Source: Mucisphaera calidilacus (lineage in GTDB: Bacteria; Planctomycetota; Phycisphaerae; Phycisphaerales; Phycisphaeraceae). Taken from it: a DNA stretch of 32,000 bases. The notes under the pieces were generated by a model. That model was given only the letters and a program-made list of their open reading frames with translations, was not told the DNA's origin and made no database searches. The DNA is taken from the NCBI RefSeq assembly GCF_007748075.1, contig NZ_CP036280.1, forward strand, positions 3,120,001-3,152,000. The letters run 5' to 3'. The translations under genes were made by a program, and so were the position numbers. Each line of letters starts with the position of its first letter. The first letter of the stretch is position 1. Positions 4,807 through 27,435 of this stretch are shown here, in pieces.

Positions 4807-4890
4807 GTTGACCCGATGTTAACGAGTCGCGGGCACCTGTTCAGAGGGCAAGGTGTTGTGGTCAACCAAGCCCGCGACAGGCTCAGTCCC

Positions 4891-4976
4891 CCCAACGAGC
4901 CCGGGACGGGCGTCCCGGGTCGTGCACGTCTCAACCTCCCCACCCCGCCCTGCCCGCGATGATGCAAACCCGTGCC
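4891..4976. repeat. ~86-bp intergenic repeat, copy A, with internal palindrome CCCGGGAC-GGGC-GTCCCGGG (4900-4919)
   Basis: It aligns by eye at ~90% identity to the reverse complement of 10723..10807. The flanks are near-identical (cccaacgag.ccgggacgggcgtcccgggtc.tgcacgtctcaacc ... tgcccgcgatgatgcaaacccgtgcc) around a variable C-rich centre. Confidence 0.8.
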
Positions 4977-5069
4977 CCCTCCTCTGCACCCCGAACCTAC
5001 CCCGGATCCCCCGCCGCCAAATAGTTGCTCCCACAGACCCACGAACACCATGCCTCTGAAGCACGAGAC

Positions 5070-6824
5070 CTAGCGCTGACGCATACGCGACGACAACCAC
5101 AATACACCCAGCACCGCGGCCACCGATGGCGCTGGCACCGACGCAGGTTGATCGAAATTCTGCGCGAGCAAACTCAGATCCAATAAGTCAACCACGCCGT
5201 CGCCGTTGAAATCACCCTGCTCCCACATCCCTGAGCCTCCAAATGATCCGGCAAGCTCGCTGAGATCAACCAGATCAACCTGAAAGTCAAGATTCGAGTC
5301 TCCGGCACGAACGCCTAAATATTCGGTAAGCCATACAAGACGATCTAGCACGTCAAGCATCTGGTCGCCGTTGAGATCGACAGCTGGTTCTCCCTCTGCA
5401 ATCAAGTAGTCAAGCAGTGGCAGATCATCACCATCAATCACACCACTAAAGTCAGCATCCCCAGGTATCTCAAATTCAAAACGCCACGATTCGCCCAGGA
5501 TACCCGCACTCATTGCCGAAGCGACGAGCCGCGCACCCTCTGCCGTGTAATGAACGCCATCGTTCGAGTAGACATCGAAGTATGGCGAATCAACCGACCA
5601 GTAAGCCTCTGCAAGCGTCCGACGCAGATTAACGGACATGACATTCGACATCGATCGCGCAATCTCATAGTGCACGCCCGCGTGCTGATCGTAGTAAGCC
5701 CTCTCCTCAGCAGATAACTCAATACGATCAGGGTCGGTGATGAGAATCACCGGATAATCCGAATCCCCCTGCCACGACCTCAAGCGATCGATCATCTGTT
5801 CCAGATTGACTCGATACTGATCAGTTTCAACACCGAATCCACCATCATTCGCACTCAACGTGATCACAGCCGCATCAAAACCCAAGGCCGCATACATAGC
5901 GCCCGCCTCATCATGCCTGGAGAGAAACGTCCCCGTTGCGTAACCGCCAACCGAAAGGTCCGACACGACAACACCTTCCGGGCGATGCATGTTCACATAA
6001 CGCATGCCGACAATGTCAGTCAGGCGATCATCATCCGTACCATACAACTCCACCGCCATGTAAGTCTTGTCGTCGAAATCGAGTGGCTCGGTCATGGCAG
6101 ACCGTACCGCGTATGTTTCCGTCGCAAGTCCCATCTCGAGTTCGCCCGATGTGGTCACCGGCGCGAAGTAACTCATAGACCCATCCACCGGCCGAGCCGC
6201 ATACGCCAAACCGCCCGAGTCCGGGTGTGTCCCCGCGAACACCTCCGCACGAATCTCTCCCGAGACGTCAAACATCATGACATCATCAGGAAGCTTGACG
6301 CCAGAAGAGACAAACTCGCCACTCGGTAATAAGCCAGTCAACTGGCCATAGGCTTGACCGTTGATGTTGCTGAAATAACGCTTGGTTGAATGGGCACGCA
6401 CATTCATACCCGGCAAGACCTGATGAGACGAAAGCCGACCCTGCGACGGAGTCGGTGACGCAGCCCCATTGCGCAACAGCATCTCAGCAGCAACGCTCCC
6501 ACCACCGCCATAACTCGAATAAGAAGCCACCTGAGTCTCGGGAATGTTCCCATACCGCTGGTAGAACTCATACCCGAGTCTCGGAATCACCACCGCACCC
6601 GCGCCGCCAGGCGAGGTCTCCTGCGAATCACCAATCACAGATAAACGAACCGTATCCATGTAGGCCGAGGCAAACAACGCATCAAAGACCTCTGGATTCT
6701 GCGTGAAGCGGTAAGGCACCTCGGCATAAGTCGGGTACGCAGCGGCATGACGACCCAATACACACGAGAAGACCAAACAACCCGACATGATCAGGAGTCT
6801 CGAGTCAATCATGATCTTTCTCAC
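5070..6824 (-). CDS. secreted SGNH/GDSL-type hydrolase with large insertion, dockerin-like repeats and PEP-CTERM-like anchor
   Basis: Signal-peptide-like N-terminus. SGNH blocks are VIGDSQ (Ser67), SVGGY, SANDGG and NDGVHYT. C-terminal Ca-binding dockerin-like repeats are present (DLNGDQMLDVLD, GDFNGDGVVDLLDL), followed by VPAPSVAAVLGVLWLSSRMRQR (PEP-CTERM-like). GC is ~45-52%, lower than the flanks. The start could be GTG 6824 or ATG 6812. Confidence 0.8.
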   Translation of the reverse strand: MRKIMIDSRLLIMSGCLVFSCVLGRHAAAYPTYAEVPYRFTQNPEVFDALFASAYMDTVRLSVIGDSQETSPGGAGAVVIPRLGYEFYQRYGNIPETQVASYSSYGGGGSVAAEMLLRNGAASPTPSQGRLSSHQVLPGMNVRAHSTKRYFSNINGQAYGQLTGLLPSGEFVSSGVKLPDDVMMFDVSGEIRAEVFAGTHPDSGGLAYAARPVDGSMSYFAPVTTSGELEMGLATETYAVRSAMTEPLDFDDKTYMAVELYGTDDDRLTDIVGMRYVNMHRPEGVVVSDLSVGGYATGTFLSRHDEAGAMYAALGFDAAVITLSANDGGFGVETDQYRVNLEQMIDRLRSWQGDSDYPVILITDPDRIELSAEERAYYDQHAGVHYEIARSMSNVMSVNLRRTLAEAYWSVDSPYFDVYSNDGVHYTAEGARLVASAMSAGILGESWRFEFEIPGDADFSGVIDGDDLPLLDYLIAEGEPAVDLNGDQMLDVLDRLVWLTEYLGVRAGDSNLDFQVDLVDLSELAGSFGGSGMWEQGDFNGDGVVDLLDLSLLAQNFDQPASVPAPSVAAVLGVLWLSSRMRQR

Positions 6825-7048
6825 CCGAATGATGTAACGATGGCTGCCTTATTGACGCTGCTGTAAGAGTATCAGCTTGCACTCGACCCGCCAGTCGAAT
6901 GACGGAAACCTCACAGACTTCTGCTTAGCCATCAATGCCATGACCCCGACCGTTGTTTCAAGCCTTCTAACCGCCGCCGTAACTTACCCAATTTGCCAGC
7001 TGACAGAAGTCAACCCCCTACCCCACCTCCTGACCTCAGTCTGCCCCC

Positions 7049-7651
7049 TCACAACGCCCCCAGCAGACGCTCCTCCAGACCCACGTCACGACCGGCAGGC
7101 GACCAGAACACCCGACTCGACCGAGGATCACCCGTCATCGTGATGCCGCCTGTCGGCACACCATTGCGAACCCCCGTGTCGTAATAAACCTTCCGACCGA
7201 AGTTCCCGCCCAGCCGACGATCCGTGTGACGCAGCCGCTCGTGCTCCACCGTCATAATCACCGACACCCCCCCTTCCACCACCTCCACCCGCGCCGTCGC
7301 GATCCGACGCATCGCCGTCATCGTCGCCACCGCCGACTCCGACCCGCTCGCCGAAGGACCCGCCCAGAACTCACCCGCCACGGGCACCGGCGCCGGCAGC
7401 GTCCGCAACGAGCCAAACCGCTGATTCACACGCTCGATCACAAAACCCTCGTCCTCCAGCAACAGCTCCACACGACGCAGAACCTCCAGACGCGAACCGT
7501 CCGAAACCACCCGCGACGTCAACGGCCGATCCTCACCCGCCGGCACCACCTGCGCATCCGCCGCCACCTCGTTCGCCTCAGGCGTCGACGTGCAACCCCA
7601 CACACAACAAGCCGCGAACACCATCAGACCCGCCAGCGCGCATCGCATCAT
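7049..7651 (-). CDS. probable lipoprotein, unknown function
   Basis: Internal start MMRCALAGLMVFAACCVWGCTST (signal peptide plus Cys lipobox), with GGAGG (rc of 7655-7659) just upstream. The 55 codons upstream in ORF 7049..7816 lack coding character. Confidence 0.6.
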   Translation of the reverse strand: MMRCALAGLMVFAACCVWGCTSTPEANEVAADAQVVPAGEDRPLTSRVVSDGSRLEVLRRVELLLEDEGFVIERVNQRFGSLRTLPAPVPVAGEFWAGPSASGSESAVATMTAMRRIATARVEVVEGGVSVIMTVEHERLRHTDRRLGGNFGRKVYYDTGVRNGVPTGGITMTGDPRSSRVFWSPAGRDVGLEERLLGAL

Positions 7652-7997
7652 CAACCTCCGGAATCCACAATGAACGCACAAAAATCCATGCCGACAGACT
7701 ACACGATCCGAAAAAAACGCGTCCATGCGCTCCTTCCGAATCCGTCGTATAAGATCAACGAAGGTGCCATCCACACAGGCAGCGTTCGGCGAATCGATCC
7801 AGCAAGCTCCCAGCAAGCCCGATCACTGATGCTGCCGATCACCCACAACTCCGGGTCGTCCCTAACCCGAAACGCGGGCCCAATCTGTCCTGCGCGCTGG
7901 CCGCGAATCCTTTCTGCCTTCGTTGACGTCCCACGGCCCTCCCGGGCCGTTCATTCCAACTTGTCGACCGCCGACCTCCTGCCGACGGCCCCGAAAC

Positions 7998-8486
7998 TCA
8001 GTCCGTGATCCCCAGCGGACCACTCGCGCGAATCACCTGGTCCGGCTCCACAAACACCCGACCAATATCCAGGCCAGCCTGACGCTGACCCCAACGCTCG
8101 AGCGGCATCAACTTCATGTGCGCTCCGTTTCCCACGACGGCCACGTCGCGTCCCAACGCAACCAGCTCCACGAGTCGGTCCGGCAATCGGATCCTTCCCT
8201 GCCGATCCGATTCCACGCGGAAGCTGTGCGAGAAGAAGGCTTCCTTATAGACGACGAGCTGGTCGACCGGCATCCCGGACGAATCAATCTGCCGGGCGTA
8301 CTCGTCGAACGACCGCTCCGGGAAAACGCGAAGCGTCCCCGGCTCGTGCGACGGGTTGACATAGAACGCGAGCGGGTCGCCTTCCGCCGCTCCCATCTCC
8401 CGCTGAATCGCGGTGCGGAAACTGGAAGGAATGGCGATCCGGTTCTTCGTGTCAACCGAGTGCTCATAGTTGCCAGTCAGAAACAA
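7998..8486 (-). CDS. mraZ: transcriptional regulator MraZ
   Basis: MFLTGNYEHSVDTKNRIAIPSSFR plus a second DRQGRIRLPDRL repeat gives the duplicated SpoVT/AbrB-like MraZ architecture. TTG start at 8486 with GAGGA 6 nt upstream. Confidence 0.9.
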   Translation of the reverse strand: MFLTGNYEHSVDTKNRIAIPSSFRTAIQREMGAAEGDPLAFYVNPSHEPGTLRVFPERSFDEYARQIDSSGMPVDQLVVYKEAFFSHSFRVESDRQGRIRLPDRLVELVALGRDVAVVGNGAHMKLMPLERWGQRQAGLDIGRVFVEPDQVIRASGPLGITD

Positions 8487-8566
8487 GGTGTGTCCTCAGA
8501 ACCTCGTAAGGATTGGCCTTCCATGGCCATCAAAAGGCTCCGTCCGATATCCATGTCGGCACGGTA

Positions 8567-8630
8567 CCCCACTCTTCCCCACTTTGCAACACTCTTCCCC
8601 ACTTTTCACCACTTTGCCCCACCAAGCCCC
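8567..8630 (-). promoter_or_regulatory. array of six GTGGGG-like hexamers at exact 10-bp spacing (MraZ-box-like operator) upstream of mraZ
   Basis: The top strand reads cccc|actcttcccc|actttgcaac|actcttcccc|acttttcacc|actttgcccc|accaagcccc. On the mraZ strand this gives GTGGGG, GTGGTG, GTGGGG, GTGTTG, GTGGGG, GTGGGG, each 10 bp apart, ending ~80 nt before the mraZ start. Confidence 0.6.
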
Positions 8631-8745
8631 TCAAATGCGGATAAAGCCCCATGCAGCGGCACGGCCCCGTCTCTCCCCCGGCACGATCTCCACAACCCAT
8701 CCACCGCCGGCTTATCGGACCCGCCGGGTCGAAATATGTGCTGAT

Positions 8746-9639
8746 TCAGAAGCGGATGACAAACCTGCAGCCGCTTGGCTCAACCGTCTCGTGCTCCAGG
8801 CTCCCCCCCGCCCGGAGGATCAGCTCCCGGCACAGCGACAAACCTAAACCATGACCGGAAACAGACTTAACCCACGGATTAAACAGCGAGCCCACGATCG
8901 TCGGGTCGATCCCCGGCCCGTCATCCTCAACCACCACCCAGATTCCGGCGTCGTCGACGCCGGCGAGGATGCGGATGAGGGTGCCCTGGCCGCTGCGCTG
9001 CATCGCCTGATGAGCATTGTTCGCAAGGTTCGTCAGCACGCGTTCGAGCGCGCCGGCCTCGATGGGCAGATCGGGACACAACTCTAAGTCACATTCAATA
9101 CTGATGTTAGCATCGCTGCCGGTCAGGTCGAGGGATTCGATCACCGCGTCCGCGACGCGCTGGGCATCGCAAGTTGTTGGTGTGGGGTCACTTGTGGCGG
9201 ACCGCGCGAGGTCGAGGATGGTCTCGGTCAGTCGGCCGACGCGGTCGATGGTCGAGCCGGCGCGGTCGAGGGCGTTGAGGACCAGGTCGGCGTTGCCCGG
9301 GTCGCGCTTGGCGCGTGAGGCGTATATGCCTAGCGGCGTCAACAGATTATTGATCTCGTGAGCGAGGATGGAGGCCAATCCCAAGCCTTCGGGATTGATC
9401 CAGGGCGTGTCGCCCCCCTGCTCCTCATCCAGCGTAAGTTGTTTCATTTCCGTGAGTTGCTGCTCGACGTCCGCGAGATGACCCAGGGCCTGTCGGGCGA
9501 CGCTGGCGTCGGGCCGGTCGCCCAGGGCGGGGAACGCTGCGGTGTCGTTCGGCTCGGCGTTGGTCGGGGGGTCCGGATAACTCACACTCAGGTTATCGGG
9601 GCCTGGCGGCTTGACATGAGGGGTGGGGAACGGAACCAC
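8746..9639 (-). CDS. soluble sensor histidine kinase (HisKA + HATPase_c), start uncertain
   Basis: H-box ILAHEINNLLTPL, N-box NLANNAHQAM, G1 DDGPGID, G2 GHGLGLS. No TM segment. The longest ORF reaches TTG 9747, but 9671-9741 holds the parS sites and the parB promoter. Candidate starts are GTG 9639 or ATG 9447, and neither has a clear SD. Confidence 0.8.
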   Translation of the reverse strand: MVPFPTPHVKPPGPDNLSVSYPDPPTNAEPNDTAAFPALGDRPDASVARQALGHLADVEQQLTEMKQLTLDEEQGGDTPWINPEGLGLASILAHEINNLLTPLGIYASRAKRDPGNADLVLNALDRAGSTIDRVGRLTETILDLARSATSDPTPTTCDAQRVADAVIESLDLTGSDANISIECDLELCPDLPIEAGALERVLTNLANNAHQAMQRSGQGTLIRILAGVDDAGIWVVVEDDGPGIDPTIVGSLFNPWVKSVSGHGLGLSLCRELILRAGGSLEHETVEPSGCRFVIRF

Positions 9640-9670
9640 GCGATCAATCTGGCGCTGGCGTGCCGGCAGG

Positions 9671-9686
9671 TGTTCCACGTGGAACA
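9671..9686. other. parS-like site 1: TGTTCCACGTGGAACA (perfect 16-bp palindrome)
   Basis: Direct read. It matches the canonical parS consensus TGTTNCACGTGAAACA at 15 of 16 positions (the only mismatch is G for A at position 12), and its two half-sites are perfectly symmetric. It lies 12 nt upstream of the -35 of the putative parB promoter. Confidence 0.8.
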
Positions 9687-9697
9687 GGTTGTCTTTC

Positions 9698-9726
9698 TTG
9701 ACAGGGGGGTCGGCGTGCGGTTTGAT
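9698..9726 (+). promoter_or_regulatory. putative sigma70-type parB promoter TTGACA-17 nt-TTTGAT
   Basis: TTGACA at 9698-9703, a 17-nt spacer, TTTGAT at 9721-9726, then AAGGAGG (9746-9752) 6 nt before the parB ATG. Confidence 0.5.
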
Positions 9727-9741
9727 GTTCCACGTGAAACA
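9726..9741. other. parS site 2: TGTTCCACGTGAAACA (full match to consensus TGTTNCACGTGAAACA)
   Basis: Direct read. It starts at the last base of the -10 element, 18 nt before the parB ATG. Confidence 0.85.
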
Positions 9742-9758
9742 GGTCAAGGAGGACCCCC

Positions 9759-10697
9759 ATGGTCACCAAGCGTCCATCTCGTCTGGGTAAGGGGCTGGCA
9801 AGCCTCGTGAGTCAGCCGGTGTCGGTGCAGCCCCCTGCTGCTTCTGAAAAGGCTGCGGCAGCGGCGGCATCGTCCGATGCGGAGGTGATTCATCGCCTGC
9901 TGCTGGAGGATCTGGAGCCGAACCCGTTCCAGCCGAGGCAGGACTTTGATCCGGCGCGGCTTCGGGAGTTGGCGGACTCGATCCGATCGCAGGGCGTGAT
10001 GCAGCCGGTGACGGTGCGGAAGAAGCCGGGCGAGGCGGGTCGGTACCAGATCATCGCAGGTGAGCGTCGCTGGCGCGCCGCGAAGCTGGCGGGGTTGGAG
10101 CGGATCCCTGCCCTGCTGCAGGCGTTGGAGGATCAGCAGGCGGCGGAGTGGGCGTTGATCGAGAACCTGCAGCGGGAGGATCTGAACCCGATTGAGCGCG
10201 CGAAGGCGTTGCAGGAGCTGATCCATAGGCATGGGCTGAGTCATGACCGGCTGGGGCAGCAGATCGGGTTGGAGCGGTCGACGGTGACGAATCTGCTGCG
10301 GCTGCTGTCGCTTGCTGAGCCGGTGCAGGATCATCTGCGGTCGGAGCGGCTGGCGATGGGTCATGCGCGGGCTTTGGCGGCGGTGTCGGACCTGGATTTG
10401 CAGGCGGAGCTGGCGGACCGGGCGGTGCGTGAGGGGTGGTCGGTTCGGCGGGTGGAGTCGGAGGTCAAGCGGGCGGGCAGGGCGCAGGACGAGGCGCCGT
10501 CGGTGAAGCGTGAGGCGCGGGGCGTGCACCTGGCTGCGTTTGAGCAGCATATTCTGCAGCACACGGGGTTGAAGGCGAGCATCAAGCCGACGGGCAAGAA
10601 GGGGGGCGGGAAGCTGACGCTGGCGTTTGATTCGCCTGAGGGGTTCATGGCGCTGCTGGGGCGGCTGGGGGTTCCAGAGCCTGAGGAAGGCGTTTAG
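9759..10697 (+). CDS. parB: chromosome partitioning protein ParB/Spo0J
   Basis: SRLGKGLASLV N-terminus, LEPNPFQPRQDFD, and the IIAGERRWRAAKLAG arginine patch/CTP-binding motif. HTH region plus a C-terminal dimerisation tail. Confidence 0.95.
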   Translation: MVTKRPSRLGKGLASLVSQPVSVQPPAASEKAAAAAASSDAEVIHRLLLEDLEPNPFQPRQDFDPARLRELADSIRSQGVMQPVTVRKKPGEAGRYQIIAGERRWRAAKLAGLERIPALLQALEDQQAAEWALIENLQREDLNPIERAKALQELIHRHGLSHDRLGQQIGLERSTVTNLLRLLSLAEPVQDHLRSERLAMGHARALAAVSDLDLQAELADRAVREGWSVRRVESEVKRAGRAQDEAPSVKREARGVHLAAFEQHILQHTGLKASIKPTGKKGGGKLTLAFDSPEGFMALLGRLGVPEPEEGV

Positions 10698-10722
10698 GTC
10701 CGATAACCTCTTGCGGATGCGA

Positions 10723-10807
10723 GGCACGGGTTTGCATCATCGCGGGCAGTGCGGGGCGGGGGGTTGAGACGTGCATGACCCGGGACGCCCGTCCCGGCCT
10801 CGTTGGG
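10723..10807. repeat. ~85-bp intergenic repeat, copy B (inverted relative to copy A)
   Basis: Its reverse complement aligns with 4891..4976. It contains the same CCGGGAC-N-GTCCCGG palindrome and lies between the convergent parB and cheB 3' ends. Confidence 0.8.
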
Positions 10808-10915
10808 AGGGGCTATTGGTTGAGAGGGGGCACGCCTAGCAGACGATTCTCTGACGAGAAGCTTGCTGAGATTCGGCACGCGTGCGTGGTTTGGAGGGAT
10901 GTGTGGATGGGGTTG

Positions 10916-12001
10916 TTATGCGGCGGCGCGGGTGGTTTGGGTTTCGATGAGTGCCTGGGCGAGTTGGACGGGGGGCATGGCGGCGAGGGCGGTTTGGTCT
11001 TCGACGACGGCTTTGGGCATGCCATAGACGACGCTGGTGGCCTCGTCCTGGGCGAGGATGGTTCCGCCTGCCTCTTTGAGCGTTTTGGCGCCGTTGGCTC
11101 CGTCGCGGCCGATGCCGGTGAGGACGATGCCCAGGGCGTTGGCCCCGAAGACCCTGGTGGCGGATTCGAGGAGGAGGTTGACGCTGGGTTTGTAGGCTTC
11201 GTCGGGTGCTTCGACGGTCTGGATGCGTGGGTTGTTGGGTCGTCCGGTGATGATGTGGTGTGAGCTGCCATGCATGATGGTGATGGTGCCGGGCCGGATG
11301 ACCTCGCCGTCTCCACCATGAACTACGTTCATTCTGCAGACGTTATCGAGTCGGTTGGCCATGGACTCGGTAAAGACTTTGGGCATGTGCTGGGCGACGA
11401 CGATGGGCAGGGGGAAGTTTTCGGGGAGTCGTTCGAGGATGTATTCGAGGACGGGGGGCCCGCCTGTGGAGGAGCCGATGCAGACGATGCTGACGTTTCG
11501 GACGGGTTCGATGGCGGATCTGACGGCGGCGGGGGGGTTCGTGGTGGTGGTGTCGTTCTGGGCGTCGGCGTTTCGTGGGGTTGTCTGCGTTGTGGTGAAG
11601 CGACCGCGTGAGGCGGCGATGGCCTTGATGCGTTCGAGCAGGTCGTCGCGCATGTCGCCCATTTTGGTGGAGAAGGTGGAGTGGTCTTTGGCGATGACGT
11701 CGACGGCGCCGATGCGTAGAGCGCGCAGGGATTCGACGGAGCCTTCGGTGGTGAGGGAGCTGCACATGAGGACGCGTGTGGGGCACTCGCGCATGATGAC
11801 GCGTAGGGCGGTGAGGCCGTCCATCTCGGGCATTTCGATGTCGAGTGTCATGACGTCGGGTTTGAGGGATTTGGCGAGTTCGACGGCCTGGAGTCCGTTC
11901 TTGCCGGTGGCCACGACCTCGATGCGCGGGTCTTCGTTGAGCATGGTGCTGATGGCACGTCTCATGAAGGCCGAATCGTCGACAACTACTGCTTTGATCA
12001 T
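10916..12001 (-). CDS. cheB: chemotaxis response regulator protein-glutamate methylesterase CheB
   Basis: MIKAVVVDDSAFMRR...DVMTLDIEMPEMDG receiver, then the esterase motifs GSSTGGP, VAQHMP and GIGRDGA. Start at ATG 12001 with GGAGAG upstream. The upstream 31 ORF codons are rejected. Confidence 0.95.
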   Translation of the reverse strand: MIKAVVVDDSAFMRRAISTMLNEDPRIEVVATGKNGLQAVELAKSLKPDVMTLDIEMPEMDGLTALRVIMRECPTRVLMCSSLTTEGSVESLRALRIGAVDVIAKDHSTFSTKMGDMRDDLLERIKAIAASRGRFTTTQTTPRNADAQNDTTTTNPPAAVRSAIEPVRNVSIVCIGSSTGGPPVLEYILERLPENFPLPIVVAQHMPKVFTESMANRLDNVCRMNVVHGGDGEVIRPGTITIMHGSSHHIITGRPNNPRIQTVEAPDEAYKPSVNLLLESATRVFGANALGIVLTGIGRDGANGAKTLKEAGGTILAQDEATSVVYGMPKAVVEDQTALAAMPPVQLAQALIETQTTRAAA

Positions 12002-12032
12002 GTCGCTCTCCGCGTTGGTGGTTCCCGGGTGA

Positions 12033-13493
12033 TTACGCGGCCTCTCGTGCGTTGGCGAGGCTGGCGAGTTTTTCGATGGGCGTCTGGATGCCATCGGTTT
12101 CGACGACGAGGTCGTTGCGTGGGTTGCGGCAGAAGTGGACGGGGCCGCGGAGTTCGTTCTTGAGTTTCATGGCGACGCCTCGGTAGGTGAAGACGACGGC
12201 GGGGAAGGCTCGCGCGGTGACGGTGAGGTCGACGACGCGGTCTTGTTCCATGCGTTCTTCGAGGGTTTCGAGGGCGCCTTGTGCTTTCTTGAGCCGGGTT
12301 TCGGTCATGGAGAAGTCGCACATGATCATGGTCATGCGTTCCTTCTGTTCGGCGTTGGGTTTTTTGAGGTACTTAAGGTTCTCGTTCTCGACGGTGAGTT
12401 CCTCGAGCTGCTGTTCGGAGATCCGGATGATCTGTCTGAGTTGTTCGGCGAGGGGTTCGAGTTTGGGGAGTGCGCCGAGGACGATGTTGGTGGCCATGCC
12501 GCCCGGGGATCCGAGTTCGTTGACGGTGCCTGAGCCGACGAGTTGTATGGTTCCGCCGACGAGCGAGGCTCGTGGTGCTTCGAGGTTGCCGTGGATGACG
12601 AGGTCGGATCCGAGGAGTTCCTTGTCGATGATGAGGTTGTGGTGGACCTGTCCGGAGACGTCGTTGAGGTATCGGGCGTGGAGGTCGTTGCCGACGTCGA
12701 CGGTTCCGTCCTCGCCGCCTGCGAATCCGCCTTTGGCGTGGAGGTCGCCGGTGCAGATGATGGTGGCGGACTCGATGAGTCCGCGGATCTCGATGTTGCC
12801 GTCGGCCTTGACGCGGAAGAGGTCTCGGACGCCTTTGGTGATGAGGACGTCGCCACAGAAGTCGATATGTCCGGTGGAGAAGTCGACGTAGCCGTTGACT
12901 TCGAGTTGTGATTCGATAACGGCGCGGCTGTGTTCGCGCAGGAGGACGCCTCGGCAGGTGGCGATGAGGTCACCTGCGGGTTTGATCTCGATGGAGTCGT
13001 TGGTGTCGAGTTTGGCGGCGGTGCCCATGTGAGCCTTGACGACTTCGCCGCAGATTTCTCTGCCGTCTTCGCCTGCGGTGGGCTCGTGGATCTTGCCGAT
13101 CTTCTGTCCGCGTTTGACCATGATGAAGGCGGAGCGGTCGTAGTGCGAGAGGCTGTGCGGCGCGTCGTCGGTGTTCTCGGTCTGGTCGTTGTCGGTTTTC
13201 TCGTCGGGTTCTTTGACGAGCCACTGGACGTAGCCGTCCTGGCCGTGTTCGGCGGGCGTTCCTTCGGCGATGGTGGCGGTGAGGTTTTCGCCTGGCTTTC
13301 GTTCGCGGATGGCGCGGTCGATCGCTGAGCGCACCTCGTCGGTGAGGTGGATGTTTTTCTCGGAGGCGGCCTGTTCGACGTAGACCGTGGTGAGGTGTTC
13401 GGCGTCGAAGCCTGCGGGCACCTTGAGTTCGGCGGTCATTCGGTCGGGGGCGAGTTTGACCGAGATATCGCGATCTTTGGGTGTGTCGGGCAC
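12033..13493 (-). CDS. DUF342/FapA-family protein embedded in the che operon
   Basis: The N-terminal ISVKLAPDRMTAELKVP segment and the long beta-helix-like repeats (GNIEIRGLIESATIICTGDLHAKGG...VIHGNLEA..LVGGTIQLVG), followed by a C-terminal coiled coil, are typical of DUF342. GTG start at 13493 with GGAG 5 nt upstream. The longer ORF to 13880 overlaps cheY and is S/P/R-rich. Confidence 0.8.
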   Translation of the reverse strand: MPDTPKDRDISVKLAPDRMTAELKVPAGFDAEHLTTVYVEQAASEKNIHLTDEVRSAIDRAIRERKPGENLTATIAEGTPAEHGQDGYVQWLVKEPDEKTDNDQTENTDDAPHSLSHYDRSAFIMVKRGQKIGKIHEPTAGEDGREICGEVVKAHMGTAAKLDTNDSIEIKPAGDLIATCRGVLLREHSRAVIESQLEVNGYVDFSTGHIDFCGDVLITKGVRDLFRVKADGNIEIRGLIESATIICTGDLHAKGGFAGGEDGTVDVGNDLHARYLNDVSGQVHHNLIIDKELLGSDLVIHGNLEAPRASLVGGTIQLVGSGTVNELGSPGGMATNIVLGALPKLEPLAEQLRQIIRISEQQLEELTVENENLKYLKKPNAEQKERMTMIMCDFSMTETRLKKAQGALETLEERMEQDRVVDLTVTARAFPAVVFTYRGVAMKLKNELRGPVHFCRNPRNDLVVETDGIQTPIEKLASLANAREAA

Positions 13494-13524
13494 ACGATCG
13501 CTCCGTTGTGGGAGCGGGTCTGGC

Positions 13525-13896
13525 TCAGGCGGCCTGTACCCGCTCGAGTGTTTCCTTGATGCGTCCGCCGAGGACGTCGGGCGTGAAGGGCTTGACGACG
13601 TAGTTGTTGACGCCGGCCTTGATGGCCTCGACGACGCGAGACTTTTCGGCCTCGGTGGTGACCATGATGATGGGTGTTTTGTGCCCTTGTTCGCGGTACT
13701 TCTTGACGAAGGTGAGTCCGTCCATGTTGGGCATATTCCAGTCGACGAGCAGGAGCTCGGGCTGGAAGGCACCGACCTTGGAGAGTGCGTCGAGACCGTC
13801 GGCGGCCTCTTCGATCTCGCTGTATCCGAGTTGGGCGAGGATGCCCTTCTGGATGTTGCGCATGGTCTTTGAATCGTCAACGAGCATGACTTTCAT
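13525..13896 (-). CDS. cheY: chemotaxis response regulator CheY
   Basis: MKVMLVDDSKTMRNI...LLLVDWNMPNMDG...IIMVTTEA...NYVVKPF carries all canonical receiver residues. Start at ATG 13896 with AGGAG upstream. Confidence 0.95.
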   Translation of the reverse strand: MKVMLVDDSKTMRNIQKGILAQLGYSEIEEAADGLDALSKVGAFQPELLLVDWNMPNMDGLTFVKKYREQGHKTPIIMVTTEAEKSRVVEAIKAGVNNYVVKPFTPDVLGGRIKETLERVQAA

Positions 13897-13931
13897 CGTG
13901 GTTTGCTCCTGTTCTTGAGTGGTTTGGTGGA

Positions 13932-14408
13932 TCAGGCGGCGGTGGCGTTGACCCACTCGACCATGGAGACCTCGACGGAGAACTCGCCGATGTCGCAGCT
14001 GCAGGGGATGGTGACGCCCTTCATGTCTTTTTTGCCGAAGACGGTGTGCCCGGTTCCGACGACGACGGAGGGTACGGAGATCTGGATGGACTTGCCTTCG
14101 AACTGTGCCTTGGCGCCGCCCGAGATCATGTTGACGAGTTCGCCGATGGCGTCGGCGAAGTCGGGGTTGGTGGCCTCGAGTGTTTCGCCGGTGAAGAGGC
14201 TGACGGCACGTTCGGCGGTGGAGGTTGGGAAGCTGACGACGACGAGACCTTCGATATCGCCGGAGAGCCCGATGATGCCGGAGACGTCGTGAGCGGGTTC
14301 GGGTTCTTTTTTGAGTTCCGGCTTGCCGACGGTCACGGGCAGCTGGAGCATCATCTCGAACACGTTGGATGTTGATTGCACGAAGGGTGTGATCGATGAG
14401 GAATCCAC
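13932..14408 (-). CDS. cheX: CheX-type CheY-P phosphatase (CheC/CheX/FliY family)
   Basis: A single DAIGELVNMISGG (D-x3-E-x2-N) active-site motif. ~158 aa. GTG start at 14408 with AAGGAG 6 nt upstream. Confidence 0.8.
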   Translation of the reverse strand: MDSSSITPFVQSTSNVFEMMLQLPVTVGKPELKKEPEPAHDVSGIIGLSGDIEGLVVVSFPTSTAERAVSLFTGETLEATNPDFADAIGELVNMISGGAKAQFEGKSIQISVPSVVVGTGHTVFGKKDMKGVTIPCSCDIGEFSVEVSMVEWVNATAA

Positions 14409-14427
14409 GCCTGTCTCCTTATAAATC

Positions 14428-16704
14428 TCAGGCCGCCTGACGTTCGGCGGTGGGGTTCTGGTTACGCAGGATCTGTGTGACGTCGAGGATGAGGCTGACT
14501 TCGCCGTCCTCCTGGATGGTTGCTCCGCTGAAGGGTCCGCCCTGGGTGTACCCGTCGTCGAGCGGCTTGATAACGATTTCCTGTTGTCCGACGAGTCGGT
14601 CGACGAGGAGTCCGGCGCGTTGGCTGCCGACGCTGACGACGACGGCGAAACGTCCGGAGTTTTCGCTACGGTCTTCGTTGAGTCGTGTGGTGAGGTCGAT
14701 GAGCGGCAGGACGGTGTCGCGGAGTCGGATGACGTCCTGTCCGTTGACGGTGTGTCGGCCGTGCTCATCGGGCCTGACGATCTCGTGGATGGACTGGAGG
14801 GGTATGGCGTAGAGGTGTTTGCCGACGCCCGTGACCATGGCGGGCATGATGGCGACGGTGAGTGGGATGAGGATCTCGATAGTGGTTCCGTCGCCCTCGA
14901 CGGAGTTGATGTTGATGGTGCCGTTGATCTTCTCGACGTTGGTTCGGACGACGTCCATGCCGACGCCTCGACCGGAGAGGTCGGAGACTTTTTCGGCGGT
15001 GGAGAATCCGGCCTGGAGGATAAACCGGAAGACGTCTTCGTCGGAGAGTCCTGTGAGTTGTTCTTCGGTGGTGAGTCCGCGTTCGACGGCCTTGCGCGCG
15101 ATGACGTCGCGGGAGAGTCCCTTGCCGTCGTCGATGATGGCGATGCGGACGTGGCTGCCCTGGTGTTCGGCGACGAGTCGGATGCATCCTTCTTCGGGCT
15201 TGTCGCTGGCCTGTCGTTTGTCGGGCGCCTCGATGCCGTGGTCGGCGGAGTTTCGGAGGATGTGGACGAGGGGGTCGGAGAGTTGTTCGAGGACGCTCTT
15301 GTCGACCTCGGTGTCCTTGCCCTCGATTTCGAGTCGGAGTTTCTTGCCGGTCATGCGTGCCATGTCACGGATGACGCGTGGGTATCGGTCGAAGAGTTTG
15401 GCGAGTGGCTGCATGCGTGTGCGCATGACGCCCATCTGGAGTTCGCCCATGAGCTGGTCGAGTTCGCCTGATGCGGAGGAGAACGACTCGGCGGTCTCGT
15501 GGGGGACGCCTGAGTCGCGGATGGTTCGCGTGAGTCCGAGGAGCCGGTTCTTGTTGAGGACGAGTTGTCCGACGAGGTTGAGGAGTGATTCGAGTCGTCC
15601 GACCTCGACGCGGATGGTCTGTTCGGCGACCTGCTTGGTGGCGGCTTTGGTTTCGGTTTTGTCGTCGGTCTTGTCGGCGGCGGCCTGGGCGTCGGGTGTT
15701 TGGGTGTTGCCGGGGGTGTCGGGTGCGGCGGCGTTGCCGGTGAGTTCGTTGTGTTCGGCCTCGGTGAGCAGTTCGTCGAGGAGGATGAGTGTACGGAGGT
15801 CGTCGTTGTGTTTGTTGGCGACGTCGGGTTCGAGGGTGTTGCCCTGTGCGAGTGTGTCGAGTCGTTGGATGTAGGTGTTGACGCTGAGGTTGAGGGCGCG
15901 TTTCTCGGCGAGGGTGTCGGCGGACTGCTTGACGAGCCAGGCGAGGGCGCGGATGCGGATGACGAGGTCGGGGATGGCGTTGGCGTCGGTGTGTCGGAAG
16001 TCGAGTGCGTGTCGGTGGATGGCCTGTGTGAGTTGCGAGAGGTCGTCGAGGTCGAAGAAGTCTGCGGTCTTGACGAGGATGTCGGCGACCTCGGCGAGGT
16101 GTTCGGTGGCGTCGCTGCGTGTGGCGTCGTTGGCGAACTGTCCGGCGGCTTCCTCGATGAGTTCGACCTGTTCGCGTAGGTCGGTGACCATGAATTCGAG
16201 GAGGTCGGCTTTCTGTTCGGGCAGTTCGAGGGCTCGGCTGGCGACGCGGTTGTCGTCGGCGGGCGTGGTTGGTTCGGGGGTGTCGTTGCTGATGACTGCT
16301 GCGGCGGCGGTTTGGGCCTTGACCAGTTCCCCGAGTGCTTCCATGAGCGGTTCGGGCGCGGGGTCGGCCTCGCGTCCTTCGCCGAGGTCGCTGATCATCT
16401 GTCGGACGACGTCGGCGGACTGCAGGAGGACGTCCATGCTGGCGTCGGTGACCTCGATCTCGCCCTTGCGCATGCGGTTGAGTGCTTCTTCGGCGACGTG
16501 TGCGAAGCGGATGATGGTTTCGAGGTTGAGGAAGCTGGCGGCGCCCTTGATGGTGTGGAGTGCGCGGAAGCAGCTGTTGAGCAGGTCTTTCTGGTCGGCG
16601 TCGTCGGCGGTTTCGAGCTTGACGAGATCGTTGTCGAGCTGGTCGATGAGTTCGCCTGACTCGGTGAGGAAGTCCTGCAGCAGGCTAGGATCGATGGCGT
16701 CCAT
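14428..16704 (-). CDS. cheA: chemotaxis histidine kinase CheA
   Basis: P1 Hpt (CFRALHTIKGAASFLN), P3 (IRVEVGRLESLLNLVGQLV), P4 (LVHILRNSADHGIE, DDGKGL, GRGVGMDVV) and a C-terminal CheW-like P5. Start at ATG 16704 with GGAGAA upstream. The 173 upstream R-rich ORF codons are rejected. Confidence 0.95.
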   Translation of the reverse strand: MDAIDPSLLQDFLTESGELIDQLDNDLVKLETADDADQKDLLNSCFRALHTIKGAASFLNLETIIRFAHVAEEALNRMRKGEIEVTDASMDVLLQSADVVRQMISDLGEGREADPAPEPLMEALGELVKAQTAAAAVISNDTPEPTTPADDNRVASRALELPEQKADLLEFMVTDLREQVELIEEAAGQFANDATRSDATEHLAEVADILVKTADFFDLDDLSQLTQAIHRHALDFRHTDANAIPDLVIRIRALAWLVKQSADTLAEKRALNLSVNTYIQRLDTLAQGNTLEPDVANKHNDDLRTLILLDELLTEAEHNELTGNAAAPDTPGNTQTPDAQAAADKTDDKTETKAATKQVAEQTIRVEVGRLESLLNLVGQLVLNKNRLLGLTRTIRDSGVPHETAESFSSASGELDQLMGELQMGVMRTRMQPLAKLFDRYPRVIRDMARMTGKKLRLEIEGKDTEVDKSVLEQLSDPLVHILRNSADHGIEAPDKRQASDKPEEGCIRLVAEHQGSHVRIAIIDDGKGLSRDVIARKAVERGLTTEEQLTGLSDEDVFRFILQAGFSTAEKVSDLSGRGVGMDVVRTNVEKINGTININSVEGDGTTIEILIPLTVAIMPAMVTGVGKHLYAIPLQSIHEIVRPDEHGRHTVNGQDVIRLRDTVLPLIDLTTRLNEDRSENSGRFAVVVSVGSQRAGLLVDRLVGQQEIVIKPLDDGYTQGGPFSGATIQEDGEVSLILDVTQILRNQNPTAERQAA

Positions 16705-16730
16705 GTCGTTCTCCGTTTTCCCGCTTGCGG

Positions 16731-17576
16731 TTAGATCTTGGTGTAGGCGAAGGCCTGTGCCGCGCCGATGGGTTCGAAGCCGACGTCGAGGCTCCGGAGT
16801 GTTTCGCTGTGCCCGATGAAGAGGGTGCCGTCGTCGGCGAGCTGGTTGTGGAAGGTTTTGACGACGCGTGTTCTCATCTCGTCGTCGAAGTAGATCATGA
16901 CGTTTCGGCAGAAGATGACGTCGAAGGTTCCGAAGCGTTTGGCGGCGAGAGAGTCTTTGAGGTTGAGTTTCTCGAAGTGGACCATGGACTTGATATCGGG
17001 GTCGATGGTGTAGTTGCCGTTGTCTTCGGAGAAGTATCGGTTGAGGACCATGGGGTCGACGGAGCGAATGGCGTAGTTGGTGTAGACGCCTTTGGACGCG
17101 GTGAGGAGCACTTTTTCGCTGATATCGGTGCCGAGGATCTCGATGCGCCAGTCGTTGAGGCGTACGCCGAGTGACCGGTAGATCTGTATGGCGAGTGTGA
17201 AGGGTTCTTCGCCGGAGGAGCATGCGGCGGACCAGATGCGGAGTTGCTTCTGTCCTTTGCGTGCTTCGAGGAGTCCTGGGAGGACCTGTCGTTCGAAGAC
17301 TTCGAGTTGTGGTTCGTTCCGGAAGAAGCTGGTTTCGTTGATGGTGATGCGGTTGAACATTTCCTGGAACTCGTCGGACTGGTAGGGTCCGGCGGTGAGG
17401 AACATGATGTACTGGTCGAAGTCGTTGAATCCGAGTTCCTCGACGCGTCGTGAGAGTCTTGATTCGAGGACGTACTTCTTGGATTCCTGGAAGTGGATTC
17501 CGGCCCGTTCGTAGACGACGTCGCGCAGCTTGCTGAACTGGGCGTCGTTGAGTTTGAGGGTCGCGGTACCGGGCAT
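16731..17576 (-). CDS. cheR: chemotaxis protein methyltransferase CheR
   Basis: N-terminal helical domain plus a SAM-dependent MTase (RIWSAACSSGEEPFTLAI, VIFCRNVMIYFD). Confidence 0.95.
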   Translation of the reverse strand: MPGTATLKLNDAQFSKLRDVVYERAGIHFQESKKYVLESRLSRRVEELGFNDFDQYIMFLTAGPYQSDEFQEMFNRITINETSFFRNEPQLEVFERQVLPGLLEARKGQKQLRIWSAACSSGEEPFTLAIQIYRSLGVRLNDWRIEILGTDISEKVLLTASKGVYTNYAIRSVDPMVLNRYFSEDNGNYTIDPDIKSMVHFEKLNLKDSLAAKRFGTFDVIFCRNVMIYFDDEMRTRVVKTFHNQLADDGTLFIGHSETLRSLDVGFEPIGAAQAFAYTKI

Positions 17577-17644
17577 CTCGTCTCCCTTGGTGTGGAAGGC
17601 GCGTGACGGCGTTTGTGCCGTCGCGCGTGGTTGTGTTGTGAGGA

Positions 17645-18199
17645 TCAGGCTGCGGCTCGCAGGGCGGCCTGGTCGAGTGCCCGGAGTTCGTCGGTGTCGA
17701 AGAGTTTTTCGAGGTTGAGGAGGATGAGGAGTCGGTCCTGGAGTTTGCCGACGCCCTGGACGTAGTCGGAGTTGATGCCTGTGGCCATGGGTGGCGCGGG
17801 CTCGACGATGTCGGAGTTGATGCGGAGGACCTCGTTGACGGAGTCGACGGTGAAGCCGATGACGCGCGTCTCGACCTCGACGACGATGATGCGTGAGTCG
17901 GCGGTGTTCTCGCGGATTTCCATGCCGAAGCGTTTACGCAGGTCGATGACGGGGATGATTTTCCCGCGGAGGTTGATGACGCCCTCGACGTAGGAGGGGC
18001 TCTGGGGGACCTGGGTGATCTGCATCATGCGGTTGATTTCCTGAACGCTCAGGATGGAGACCGCGTATTCTTCGTCGCCGACCACGAAGCTGACGAGCTG
18101 GAGCAGTTCGCCTTCGGCGGTGGAGCCGATCTGTTCGGTGGTCTGTTTCTGGTTGATCTGTTCGGCGAGGTCGGTGGCACGTTCTGCGATCGTGGACAT
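17645..18199 (-). CDS. cheW: chemotaxis coupling protein CheW
   Basis: LVSFVVGDEEYAVSILSVQEI...VEGVINLRGKIIPVIDLRKRFG is the CheW-like domain. GGAG upstream of the ATG. Confidence 0.95.
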   Translation of the reverse strand: MSTIAERATDLAEQINQKQTTEQIGSTAEGELLQLVSFVVGDEEYAVSILSVQEINRMMQITQVPQSPSYVEGVINLRGKIIPVIDLRKRFGMEIRENTADSRIIVVEVETRVIGFTVDSVNEVLRINSDIVEPAPPMATGINSDYVQGVGKLQDRLLILLNLEKLFDTDELRALDQAALRAAA

Positions 18200-18342: not shown

Positions 18343-19428
18343 TCAGTCGTCGTTATCGGGATTTGTGGTGAGTCTGAGTTCGACGGCGGGGTGGGCGTGT
18401 CGGGAGGCGGCGTCGCGGTCGTGGTGTTTTTTCTTGGCGGCGTAGAGGTCCTGGTCGGCGATGACGAGGAGTTGTTCGGGTCGTCGTGCGTTGGAGGCGA
18501 GGCGTGTGGTGATGCCGGTGCTGACTGAGGCGTTGCCTTTCTGGCCGTGTCGGAGGAGTTGTGCACGGGAGGCGACGGCGAATTCGCCGGCGATGCGATC
18601 GGCGACCTGTCGTGCGGTCTGTTCGTCGGTTTCGGGCATGAGGATGACGAACTCGTCGCCTCCGAGTCGTCCGACGCAGTCGGATCGTCGGCTGTTGCTT
18701 TTGAGGACGCGTGCGAGTTCGCGGAGCATGAGGTCGCCGAAGGCGTGTCCTGCGGCGTCGTTGAGTTGTTTGAATCCGTCGAGGTCGATCATGAGGCAGG
18801 CGAGGTCGCGGTTGTAGCGTTGTGCTTCGGCGAACCCGCGTTCGAGGGCCTCGCTGATGGCTCTTCGGTTGGCGAGCCCGGTGAGGGGGTCGGTGGCGGC
18901 GGCGGTTTCGAGGAGCGTGACGGCCTCTTCGAGCTGCTGGTTCTTGAGTTTGACCTGGGTGAGGGTGGCTCGGAGTTGTGCCTGGAGGGCGTGGTGGTCT
19001 TCGCGGAGTCGGTGTTGTTCGAGGTTTTTCTCGATGATGGTGGGGAGGATGTTGAGGAGGTTATCGGTTCGGATGACGAAGTCGCAGGCGCCGGCGCGGA
19101 TGGTGGCGGGCGCGAGGTGAGCGAGGTCGTGGTCGGCGATGACGAGGACGGGGAAGGTGTGTGCCTCGTTCTGCCAGTGCGTGATGAGGTCGATGACGGG
19201 GTCGTCTTCGTGGTGGAGGAGGATGATGGCGAGGTCGGGGCCGTGCAGGAGGTGGCGTGCTTTCTCGATCCCGTCCGCCCAGTTGATGTGTTGACCGGTC
19301 TGGTGTTGCGTGAGGGCGCGTTCCCAGTCGGTCTTGTTCTCCCGATCCGCCCCGATGATCAGGACCCTGGTGTTGGTGTGGTCCTGGGGTGCGAGCTTGT
19401 GGATGATGTCGTTCTCGGGCCTGATCAC
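18343..19428 (-). CDS. diguanylate cyclase (GGDEF) with degenerate N-terminal receiver-like domain
   Basis: C-terminal DPLTGLANRR...GRLGGDEFVIL with RRSD (RxxD I-site) 5 aa before GGDEF. The N-terminal domain aligns to CheY-like receivers but lacks the acidic pocket, the phospho-Asp, and the conserved Thr and Lys. GTG start at 19428 with AGGAG 8 nt upstream. Confidence 0.9.
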   Translation of the reverse strand: MIRPENDIIHKLAPQDHTNTRVLIIGADRENKTDWERALTQHQTGQHINWADGIEKARHLLHGPDLAIILLHHEDDPVIDLITHWQNEAHTFPVLVIADHDLAHLAPATIRAGACDFVIRTDNLLNILPTIIEKNLEQHRLREDHHALQAQLRATLTQVKLKNQQLEEAVTLLETAAATDPLTGLANRRAISEALERGFAEAQRYNRDLACLMIDLDGFKQLNDAAGHAFGDLMLRELARVLKSNSRRSDCVGRLGGDEFVILMPETDEQTARQVADRIAGEFAVASRAQLLRHGQKGNASVSTGITTRLASNARRPEQLLVIADQDLYAAKKKHHDRDAASRHAHPAVELRLTTNPDNDD

Positions 19429-26402: not shown

Positions 26403-26475
26403 GTTGATCGGACGGAACGAAGGAACTGGAACCACGACCCGGACGTATAGTCCTGAAGCACAGAGTCAAGGCCCC

Positions 26476-27381
26476 ATGAAAGATCACATCTGGACCCTCA
26501 TCATTGCCGTTGCCGTCGTTTGCGTGCTGCTGTTCTACACGTTCAGCTACACGGTTCGCTATGACGAGGTTGCGGTGATCACGCGTTTTGATTCGGTGGT
26601 TGGTGACGTTGCGGTGGAGGAGCCGGGTCTTGGCTTCCGGTGGCCGCTGCCGATTGACCGTGTTTACAAGTATTCGAAGAAGCTGCAGCTGCTTGAGGAT
26701 CAGCTCGAGGAGTTCCAGACGTCGGACGGTTACGCGGTGATTCTGCGGACGGACCTGACGTGGCGTATCGAGGACCCGATCGCGTTTTTCCGGAGTCTTC
26801 GGACGGTGGAGAAGGCGCAGGAGCAGTTGCGGCCTTTGATTCGTGAGTTGACGGCGGTGGTGAGCAAGTATCGTTTTGATCAGCTGGTGAACAACGACCC
26901 TTCGATGCTGGCGTTGCCTGAGATCGAGGCGGCGGCGAAGGCGGAGTTAACGTCGAAGCTGGCGGGTCTGGGTTTTGGCATCGCGATCGAGCGTGTGGGT
27001 GTTCGTCGCCTGATTCTGCCTGAGTCGACGACGGAGAAGGTGTTTGAGCGTATGCGTACGACGCGTGAGGCGTTGGCGGAGAAGGCTCGTGCGGAGGGTC
27101 GTGCGCGTGCGTCGACGATCCGTTCGGACGCGGAGTCGGCGCGTGACCGGATTCTGGCGTTTGCCCAGCGTCGTGCGGAGGGGATTCGTTCGGAGGGTCT
27201 CCAGGAGGCGGCGTCGTATTACGAGGCGTTCAAGCAGAACGAGGAGTTGGCGATCTTCCTGAACGCGATGCAGAGTCTTCAGGAGATTCTGGCGAACAAC
27301 ACGAAGTTCATTCTCGATTCGGGTCAGATCGGCGCGAGCGAGCTGTTCGGCGAGGTTGAGGGTGTGTCTGAGGACGAGTGA
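26476..27381 (+). CDS. SPFH/Band-7 protein, HflC-like topology
   Basis: MKDHIWTLIIAVAVVCVLLFYTF (a single N-terminal TM) followed by VRYDEVAVITRFD...GLGFRWPLPIDRVYKYS. ATG 26476 is preferred over TTG 26404. Confidence 0.85.
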   Translation: MKDHIWTLIIAVAVVCVLLFYTFSYTVRYDEVAVITRFDSVVGDVAVEEPGLGFRWPLPIDRVYKYSKKLQLLEDQLEEFQTSDGYAVILRTDLTWRIEDPIAFFRSLRTVEKAQEQLRPLIRELTAVVSKYRFDQLVNNDPSMLALPEIEAAAKAELTSKLAGLGFGIAIERVGVRRLILPESTTEKVFERMRTTREALAEKARAEGRARASTIRSDAESARDRILAFAQRRAEGIRSEGLQEAASYYEAFKQNEELAIFLNAMQSLQEILANNTKFILDSGQIGASELFGEVEGVSEDE

Positions 27382-27435
27382 TCGGTGTCTGCCGGCGTGG
27401 GTCGGCATTGCGATAAGCGGAACGATTGAGTTGCT

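Follow-up and report, generated by a model that had tools for sequence, protein, structure and literature searches.

A conserved Ala-Ala C-terminus on the chemotaxis operon proteins of Phycisphaerae, a candidate ClpXP degron

The window analysed in this work is a stretch of 32,000 nucleotides (nt) from Mucisphaera calidilacus (contig NZ_CP036280.1, positions 3,120,001 to 3,152,000). It contains a chemotaxis (Che) signalling operon on the minus strand that spans 18199-10916 in the order CheW-CheR-CheA-CheX-CheY-FapA-CheB. The operon encodes CheA, CheW, CheY, the CheR/CheB pair, and the auxiliary proteins CheX and FapA from co-oriented and contiguous genes. Six of the seven operon proteins end in Ala-Ala when the stop-proximal codons are read directly, with CheR as the lone exception. 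The identities of all eight proteins listed below (the seven operon proteins and the REC-GGDEF protein upstream of them) are backed by a Pfam domain search with matches far above the cut-offs. The features are as follows (aa, amino acids).

17645-18199, minus strand: cheW, 184 aa, ending ...ALRAAA (GCC GCA GCC TGA); Ala-Ala codons at 17648-17653 and stop TGA at 17645-17647; PF01584, E=2e-42
16731-17576, minus strand: cheR, 281 aa, ending ...AYTKI; Pfam-supported
14428-16704, minus strand: cheA, 758 aa, ending ...AERQAA (GCG GCC TGA); Ala-Ala codons at 14431-14436
13932-14408, minus strand: cheX phosphatase, ending ...VNATAA (GCC GCC TGA); Ala-Ala codons at 13935-13940; PF13690
13525-13896, minus strand: cheY, 123 aa, ending ...ERVQAA (GCC GCC TGA); Ala-Ala codons at 13528-13533
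12033-13493, minus strand: fapA/DUF342, 486 aa, ending ...NAREAA (GCC GCG TAA); Ala-Ala codons at 12036-12041
10916-12001, minus strand: cheB, REC and methylesterase domains, 361 aa, ending ...TTRAAA (GCC GCC GCA TAA); Ala-Ala codons at 10919-10924
18343-19428, minus strand: REC-GGDEF diguanylate cyclase, 143 nt upstream of cheW, ending ...PDNDD; no motif, used as negative control

The Pfam domains of CheA are Hpt, dimerisation, HATPase, and CheW-like P5. The length of CheX is about 143-158 aa as its start codon is uncertain. CheY and FapA each match an M. calidilacus protein with 100% identity. The gene cheB is the final gene of the window operon, and its product too is Ala-Ala-ended. The Ala-Ala end was found in none of the approximately 17 other credible coding sequences of the window, which encode an ATP-synthase-like ATPase, a SulP transporter, a GDSL lipase, MraZ, a histidine kinase, ParB, Sua5, a P-type ATPase, three SPFH proteins, and ABC-transporter parts. 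No methyl-accepting chemotaxis protein gene is encoded within the window. The original prediction, made from this DNA alone, had described the six Ala-Ala ends and the different end of CheR, the absence of the motif from the other coding sequences, and the -DD end of the GGDEF protein; every stop-proximal codon was re-read and all ends agree with that description.

The frequency of the Ala-Ala end that is expected by chance was estimated in two ways. Ala-Ala dipeptides account for 1.4% of the dipeptides inside these proteins, and 4/203 (2.0%) of the non-che genes that flank the orthologous operons end in Ala-Ala, a background that is approximate because the strand-aware self-trained gene caller built for this purpose still errs on some genes in the loci of about 70% guanine-cytosine (GC) content (L004 and L011). 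Both values agree with the 1-2% that had been assumed. The calculated probability for at least six of seven proteins to end in Ala-Ala at p=0.02 is about 4e-10, which bears out the earlier statement that the pattern is not due to chance. The pattern is also conserved in relatives and is therefore not chance; these comparative data carry the case independently of the window probability.

The conservation was determined using a CheA-based genome scan that identified 24 operons from Phycisphaerae (L001-L024; 42-58% CheA identity) and 56 loci from other phyla that served as controls. The che architecture is syntenic in the 24 Phycisphaerae genomes, where 82/147 che proteins end in Ala-Ala and 113/147 end in Ala, so the check that the original prediction had proposed, retention of the motif in orthologous che operons, is answered in its favour. 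In the control loci, 0/194 che proteins end in Ala-Ala. Fisher's test between the Phycisphaerae che proteins and the flanking genes gave p of about 1e-33, with no correction for shared ancestry. The Ala-Ala end is present on CheW (18/21), FapA (12/17), CheY (14/23), CheA (14/24), CheX (11/23), CheB (7/19), and CheR (6/20), and a terminal Ala is present in 17/23 CheX and 14/19 CheB. All 24 genomes encode at least one Ala-Ala-ended che protein; the number ranges from 1/7 to 6/7, with the window at the top. About half of the orthologues without the full motif (31/65) still end in Ala preceded by another residue (KA, SA, TA, VA, and others), and these may be weaker degron variants. Joint loss of the motif across all proteins of a genome was also looked for, and the over-dispersion is weak and not significant (P=0.086).

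Wider homologue sets exhibit the same end. Among the 120 closest clusters of each family (non-redundant at 90% for CheY), the Ala-Ala end is present in 116 for CheY and in 90 for CheW, the latter with 111 distinct 12-residue tails and a semi-conserved 'DEL..LDQ' segment ahead of the motif. The motif is present in 21/28 FapA homologues of the Phycisphaerae type versus 0/19 distant FapA. The three Mucisphaera-clade genomes (the window, L085, and L086) have kept Ala-Ala in CheW, CheA, CheY, FapA, and CheB. CheR of close relatives ends in TKS or TKA. In one Phycisphaerales subclade, CheR has been lengthened at its C-terminus by 7-10 residues and ends in Ala-Ala (6/20 genomes: L009-L012, L016, and L018; for example ...KLAARARLAA and ...GETMGAAA, with cheR at about 9000-10000 in each locus). 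Judged from these sequences, the motif on CheR appears to have been appended and secondarily added.

The signal is confined to the last two positions. The Ala frequency in the 147 orthologues is 0.77 at position -1, 0.64 at -2, 0.27 at -3, and about 0.15 further upstream, while the flanking genes exhibit 0.10 at -1 and 0.13 at -2. The column entropy of CheY (120 clusters) is 0.14-0.17 bits at -1 and -2 versus 2.4-2.95 bits at -3 to -6. At such entropy values, the last two residues of CheY surpass most of the receiver-domain core in conservation, and the adjoining residues drift freely.

The original prediction had placed the conserved feature at the level of the protein, and the codons bear this out. 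Among the three Mucisphaera-clade genomes, the terminal Ala codons swap synonymously (GCC, GCG, GCT, and GCA), and non-synonymous changes affect the residues right before them. The terminal Ala codons (GCC 87, GCG 52, GCA 13, GCT 12) are used in proportions similar to the internal Ala codons (1034, 786, 242, and 164, respectively). The stop codons of the 82 Ala-Ala-ended genes are TGA (57), TAA (23), and TAG (2), the spacers downstream of the operon genes differ (26-68 nt), and the gene order varies between clades, with cheB at the end of the operon in one and at its start in the other. Since the terminal Ala codons vary synonymously, selection acts at the protein level; the Ala-Ala end is under purifying selection and is particular to the che operon.

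This specificity is seen in the neighbours and the paralogues. The motif is absent from the ParB, histidine kinase, MraZ, Sua5, and P-type ATPase neighbours in the three Mucisphaera-clade genomes, and from the paralogous receiver proteins outside the core operon (L013 and L021). None of the genes flanking the related operons is flagellar. Operon-wide tagging was found only in Phycisphaerae and in none of the out-of-class clusters that were examined. The representative CheW search was swamped by multi-CheW-domain proteins and did not map the phylogenetic breadth. Among these multi-CheW-domain proteins, which come from unrelated lineages (one is a Glaciecola metagenome-assembled genome), 13/150 end in Ala-Ala, which is above the background (P0201-P0313). 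Three longer clusters around such CheW proteins (among L081-L084) have Ala-Ala on CheW alone. In L081, an adjacent upstream 657-aa protein with no Pfam match on record also ends in ...LQSAA.

A terminal Ala-Ala with a free alpha-carboxylate is a defining feature of ssrA-like degrons. It has been reported that Ala-Ala-COOH is the critical ClpX determinant of such degrons (PMC7652416, PMC10862746, PMC11034885), as the original prediction had stated. An unbiased screen of C-terminal pentapeptides in E. coli yielded essentially only ssrA-like, ClpXP-dependent strong degrons, where 91% of the top 100 had terminal Ala-Ala, Arg was favoured at -4, and -VA was as effective as -AA (PMC10862746). The substitution of AA by DD stabilises Caulobacter CdnL (PMC11034885). 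The removal of Caulobacter McpA by ClpXP, on which the earlier argument had also drawn, is documented together with that of McpB, FliF, and TipF (PMC8973945). Among the 82 Ala-Ala-ended proteins of Phycisphaerae, position -4 is Lys or Arg in 28, and position -3 is most often Ala (23), followed by Leu (9), Arg (9), and Gln (7). CheW and CheB of the window (R-A-AA) fit the upstream preferences of E. coli, which are Leu, Ala, or Arg at -4 and Leu at -3, with Pro, His, Gly, and short polar residues disfavoured at -3 (PMC10862746). To our knowledge, ClpX is the only well-characterised reader of Ala-Ala-COOH.

The Ala-Ala end is therefore probably an encoded ssrA-like C-terminal degron for ClpXP on each soluble Che component. 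We infer ClpX as the reader, as well as the occurrence and the timing of the degradation. The degron would sit on CheW, CheA, CheX, CheY, FapA, and CheB, and on CheR in some lineages. The axial pore of ClpX would bind the alpha-carboxylate and the two Ala side chains, and ClpX would unfold the tagged protein and then pass it to ClpP. The cytoplasmic signalling machinery would thus be short-lived or conditionally cleared as one set, and the pathway level would track how strongly the operon is transcribed, for instance while motile cells are settling into the extracellular matrix. Such regulation would suit a switch between a motile and a matrix-embedded state; the operon is immediately preceded by a REC-GGDEF gene in the Mucisphaera clade. 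Alternatively, the degron would serve to remove unassembled or excess subunits and to hold stoichiometry, or the clearance would be gated by an adaptor. The position of the C-termini relative to the folded domains differs among the proteins. CheA, CheB, and FapA have 10-30 residues past the last Pfam domain, and CheW has approximately 20 residues past the last conserved strand, although its AlphaFold2 (AF2) model is poor (predicted local distance difference test, pLDDT, 62.5). No clpX or transfer-messenger RNA gene was found in the window or the 24 loci.

Several observations weigh against the degron reading. The strict Ala-Ala end is present on only 56% of the orthologues, and one clade has exchanged it for other ends in CheY (...CGVKA and ...GVSS) and in CheA. 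In the E. coli screen, terminal Ala-Ala by itself was insufficient (PMC10862746), and by the rules of that screen position -3 is suboptimal in CheX (A-T-AA), FapA (R-E-AA), CheA (R-Q-AA), and CheY (V-Q-AA) of the window. It has also been reported that GFP-YALAA is degraded by ClpXP and GFP-LAA is not, so that five tail residues are needed on GFP (PMC7652416), and this bears on CheY in particular. In the AF2 model of CheY (pLDDT 93.7), helix alpha5 comprises residues 106-122 of 123 with Ala-Ala at the helix end, and the predicted free tail is about 1-3 residues (mean pLDDT of the last three residues about 76). In this model Ala-Ala caps the helix with no floppy tail, and CheY would have to fray at this helix or rely on an adaptor to be degraded. 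The one chemoreceptor encountered in the related loci (L022 5371-7401) ends in KIEQ and lacks the motif. The original prediction had also offered a dimorphic or budding bacterium as an example of the setting. M. calidilacus Pan265 is spherical and motile, divides by binary fission with no stalk or holdfast seen, and in growth forms a viscous colloid within a dense extracellular matrix (PMC8882080). A dimorphic life cycle of the Caulobacter type or a budding setting is thus not supported for this organism, and that premise falls.

Several other explanations of the motif were weighed. It is unlikely that the C-terminal degron is read by another protease or reader (ClpAP, Lon, FtsH, or a lineage-specific adaptor) and not by ClpX directly. 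The ssrA tag is recognisable by 4/5 E. coli ATP-dependent proteases (PMC10862746), and the short CheY tail and the variable -3 residues suit adaptor-assisted or alternative recognition; against this, the strong short C-degrons in the E. coli screen depended on ClpXP only (PMC10862746), and neither the operon nor its flanks encode a candidate reader. An address or docking tag that is not proteolytic, where Ala-Ala-COOH is bound by a common partner (a polar or array scaffold, PDZ- or TPR-like) that co-localises the components, is also rather unlikely. Short terminal peptides do act as tethers in chemotaxis pathways, as the receptor pentapeptide NWETF tethers CheR and CheB. The motif is common to proteins that must meet at the array, the semi-conserved segment precedes it in CheW, and in the CheY model Ala-Ala would cap a helix. 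However, two alanines offer hardly any specificity for binding, the vicinity encodes no candidate reader, neither CheX nor FapA is a known array component, and among motif classes only the ClpX degron is known to be read as Ala-Ala-COOH. The tentative extension of both ideas, unlikely as well, is that Ala-Ala-COOH is a two-residue pathway 'postcode' whose reader is not bare ClpX but a dedicated adaptor or scaffold, by which degradation would be gated or the soluble Che proteins co-localised. A single reader would then control the whole signalling pathway post-translationally. We know of no described pathway-wide C-terminal code of this type.

Two explanations that do not involve a reader of the protein end fare worse. 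That Ala-Ala or the GCN GCN codons tune termination efficiency or translational coupling is very improbable. Nascent C-terminal residues are known to affect UGA termination, and TGA is the most frequent stop among the Ala-Ala-ended genes (57/82), but the codons vary synonymously following the general Ala usage, the stops also include TAA and TAG, and the spacers vary over the range given above. The motif is moreover present on the final gene of the operon, the gene order depends on the clade, and the flanking operons lack the motif. Chance or composition, where Ala-rich low-complexity tails in a GC-rich genome end in Ala-Ala by accident, is effectively refuted. The genome has 62-64% GC and some tails are Ala-rich (AAAPPTSAAA in L002), but the background is 2%, the jump in Ala frequency is confined to -1 and -2, the genome of L001 with 48% GC still has 3/7, none of the 194 che proteins from other GC-rich phyla has the motif, and the motif is kept across hundreds of non-redundant homologues.

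The ClpXP degron reading was compared with known systems. The ssrA tag (...YALAA), CtrA and CdnL of Caulobacter (...AA), and the Ala-tails added by RqcH belong to the class of ssrA-like C-terminal ClpX degrons. This class is reportedly the C-motif 1 of Flynn et al. 2003. The ends described here are similar to that class in that the terminal Ala-Ala with a free carboxylate is constant, the upstream residues are variable, and a basic residue at -4 is common as in the E. coli preference. The known degrons occur on single proteins or as a post-translational quality-control tag, whereas here the end is encoded on essentially all soluble members of a pathway, is conserved class-wide, and has Leu at -3 uncommonly (9/82). 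The clearance by ClpXP in Caulobacter (McpA, McpB, FliF, and TipF, with the CpdR adaptor) follows the same logic of removal via C-terminal determinants (PMC8973945). In Caulobacter, receptors and flagellar proteins are the documented substrates, and the cell cycle is dimorphic, whereas here the tags are on cytoplasmic signalling proteins of a bacterium with binary fission and the one receptor seen in a related locus is untagged. Several mycobacterial anti-sigma factors reportedly share an encoded ssrA-like C-terminus read by ClpX (bioRxiv 10.1101/491043); they form a paralogue family, whereas here unrelated folds are united only by operon and pathway. Our full-text literature searches gave no description of an operon- or pathway-wide Ala-Ala end, in agreement with the earlier statement that no such pattern was known for a che operon. 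The degron type and the removal of chemoreceptors by ClpXP are already known, and the class-conserved tagging of unrelated folds from one pathway is new.

The surroundings of the operon exhibit further features. Only the Mucisphaera clade and L004 have the REC-GGDEF gene in this place, and the tail of its protein is not conserved. An Rrf2-family regulator, not GGDEF, lies directly upstream of cheW at L001 7766-8197, L004 7710-8162, and L021 7719-8111, and these regulators narrowly miss the motif, ending in AAAG or ALAG. Proteins directly upstream of the operon end in acidic residues, namely in GDDD, SEDL, or DDED for the loci and in DNDD for the GGDEF protein of the window. An acidic-ended small open reading frame (ORF) with no Pfam match lies just upstream of cheB in L008, L015, and L017-L020 (for example L018 6475-7011). 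These acidic ends, the opposite of the Ala-Ala end, may be a coincidence. In the clade where cheB is first, a tRNA-Leu(GAG) gene lies ahead of the che operon (L008, L011, L012, and L015-L020, at about 7000-7250; L020 8680-8766).

The GC skew of the window is unusually strong at 4600-12000, where it changes from about -0.2 to -0.38 to about +0.3 with the sign change at about 8800-9000. The flip adjoins mraZ, the histidine kinase gene, and parB, and the skew is positive thereafter to the end of the window regardless of how the genes are oriented. Such a sign pattern is suggestive of a replication origin; DnaA boxes of the E. coli consensus are not enriched at the switch. With an origin at the flip, the che operon would be head-on to replication with a coding strand rich in C and A. 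The linker between the REC and methylesterase domains of CheB (window 11400-11560) is a Thr/Pro/Asn-rich low-complexity run, TTTQTTPRNADAQNDTTTTNPP, a composition in keeping with the coding strand of lagging-strand genes, which is rich in C and A. Because of the very strong strand skew, codon usage differs for genes on the lagging strand, and a codon-usage gene caller consequently picked antisense ORFs across the che operon. This caller was rejected, as were a longest-ORF caller that over-extended the 5' ends and a GC-position caller that mis-called CheX and dropped real coding sequences.

Other stretches of the window were also inspected. Three successive SPFH/Band-7 proteins (695, 325, and 444 aa) are encoded at 24315-28770, with an ABC ATPase and an ABC-2 permease after them, and in distant relatives (L018) the che operon likewise has an SPFH protein and an ABC-2 protein on its flanks. 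Two small overlapping ORFs at 2125-2986, the second with a weak HEPN domain match, may be a toxin-antitoxin pair of the HEPN/MNT type. A gene for a phage terminase large subunit lies a few kb beyond mraZ in the two Mucisphaera relatives (L085 19042-20372 and L086 18898-20372), and at the matching distance the window has a gene for a GDSL-lipase/dockerin protein (5070-6824) in its place, which makes the stretch variable among close relatives.

Censuses of C-terminal dipeptides by pathway, such as the one in this work, can expose post-translational regulons from the sequences by themselves. If the Ala-Ala end is a working degron, the che operon of Phycisphaerae would be the first case of a whole bacterial signalling pathway that is hard-wired for ClpXP turnover via the same two-residue end, covering the kinase, coupler, response regulator, phosphatase, methylesterase, and accessory protein across a class of Planctomycetota. 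The orthologues would also provide a natural, phylogenetically replicated data set of the upstream contexts that are tolerated by an Ala-Ala degron. The bacteria would have a simple mechanism to switch chemotaxis off or to keep subunit stoichiometry, and the paradigm of receptor clearance in Caulobacter would be extended to the cytoplasmic Che proteins of a bacterium without a known dimorphic cycle.

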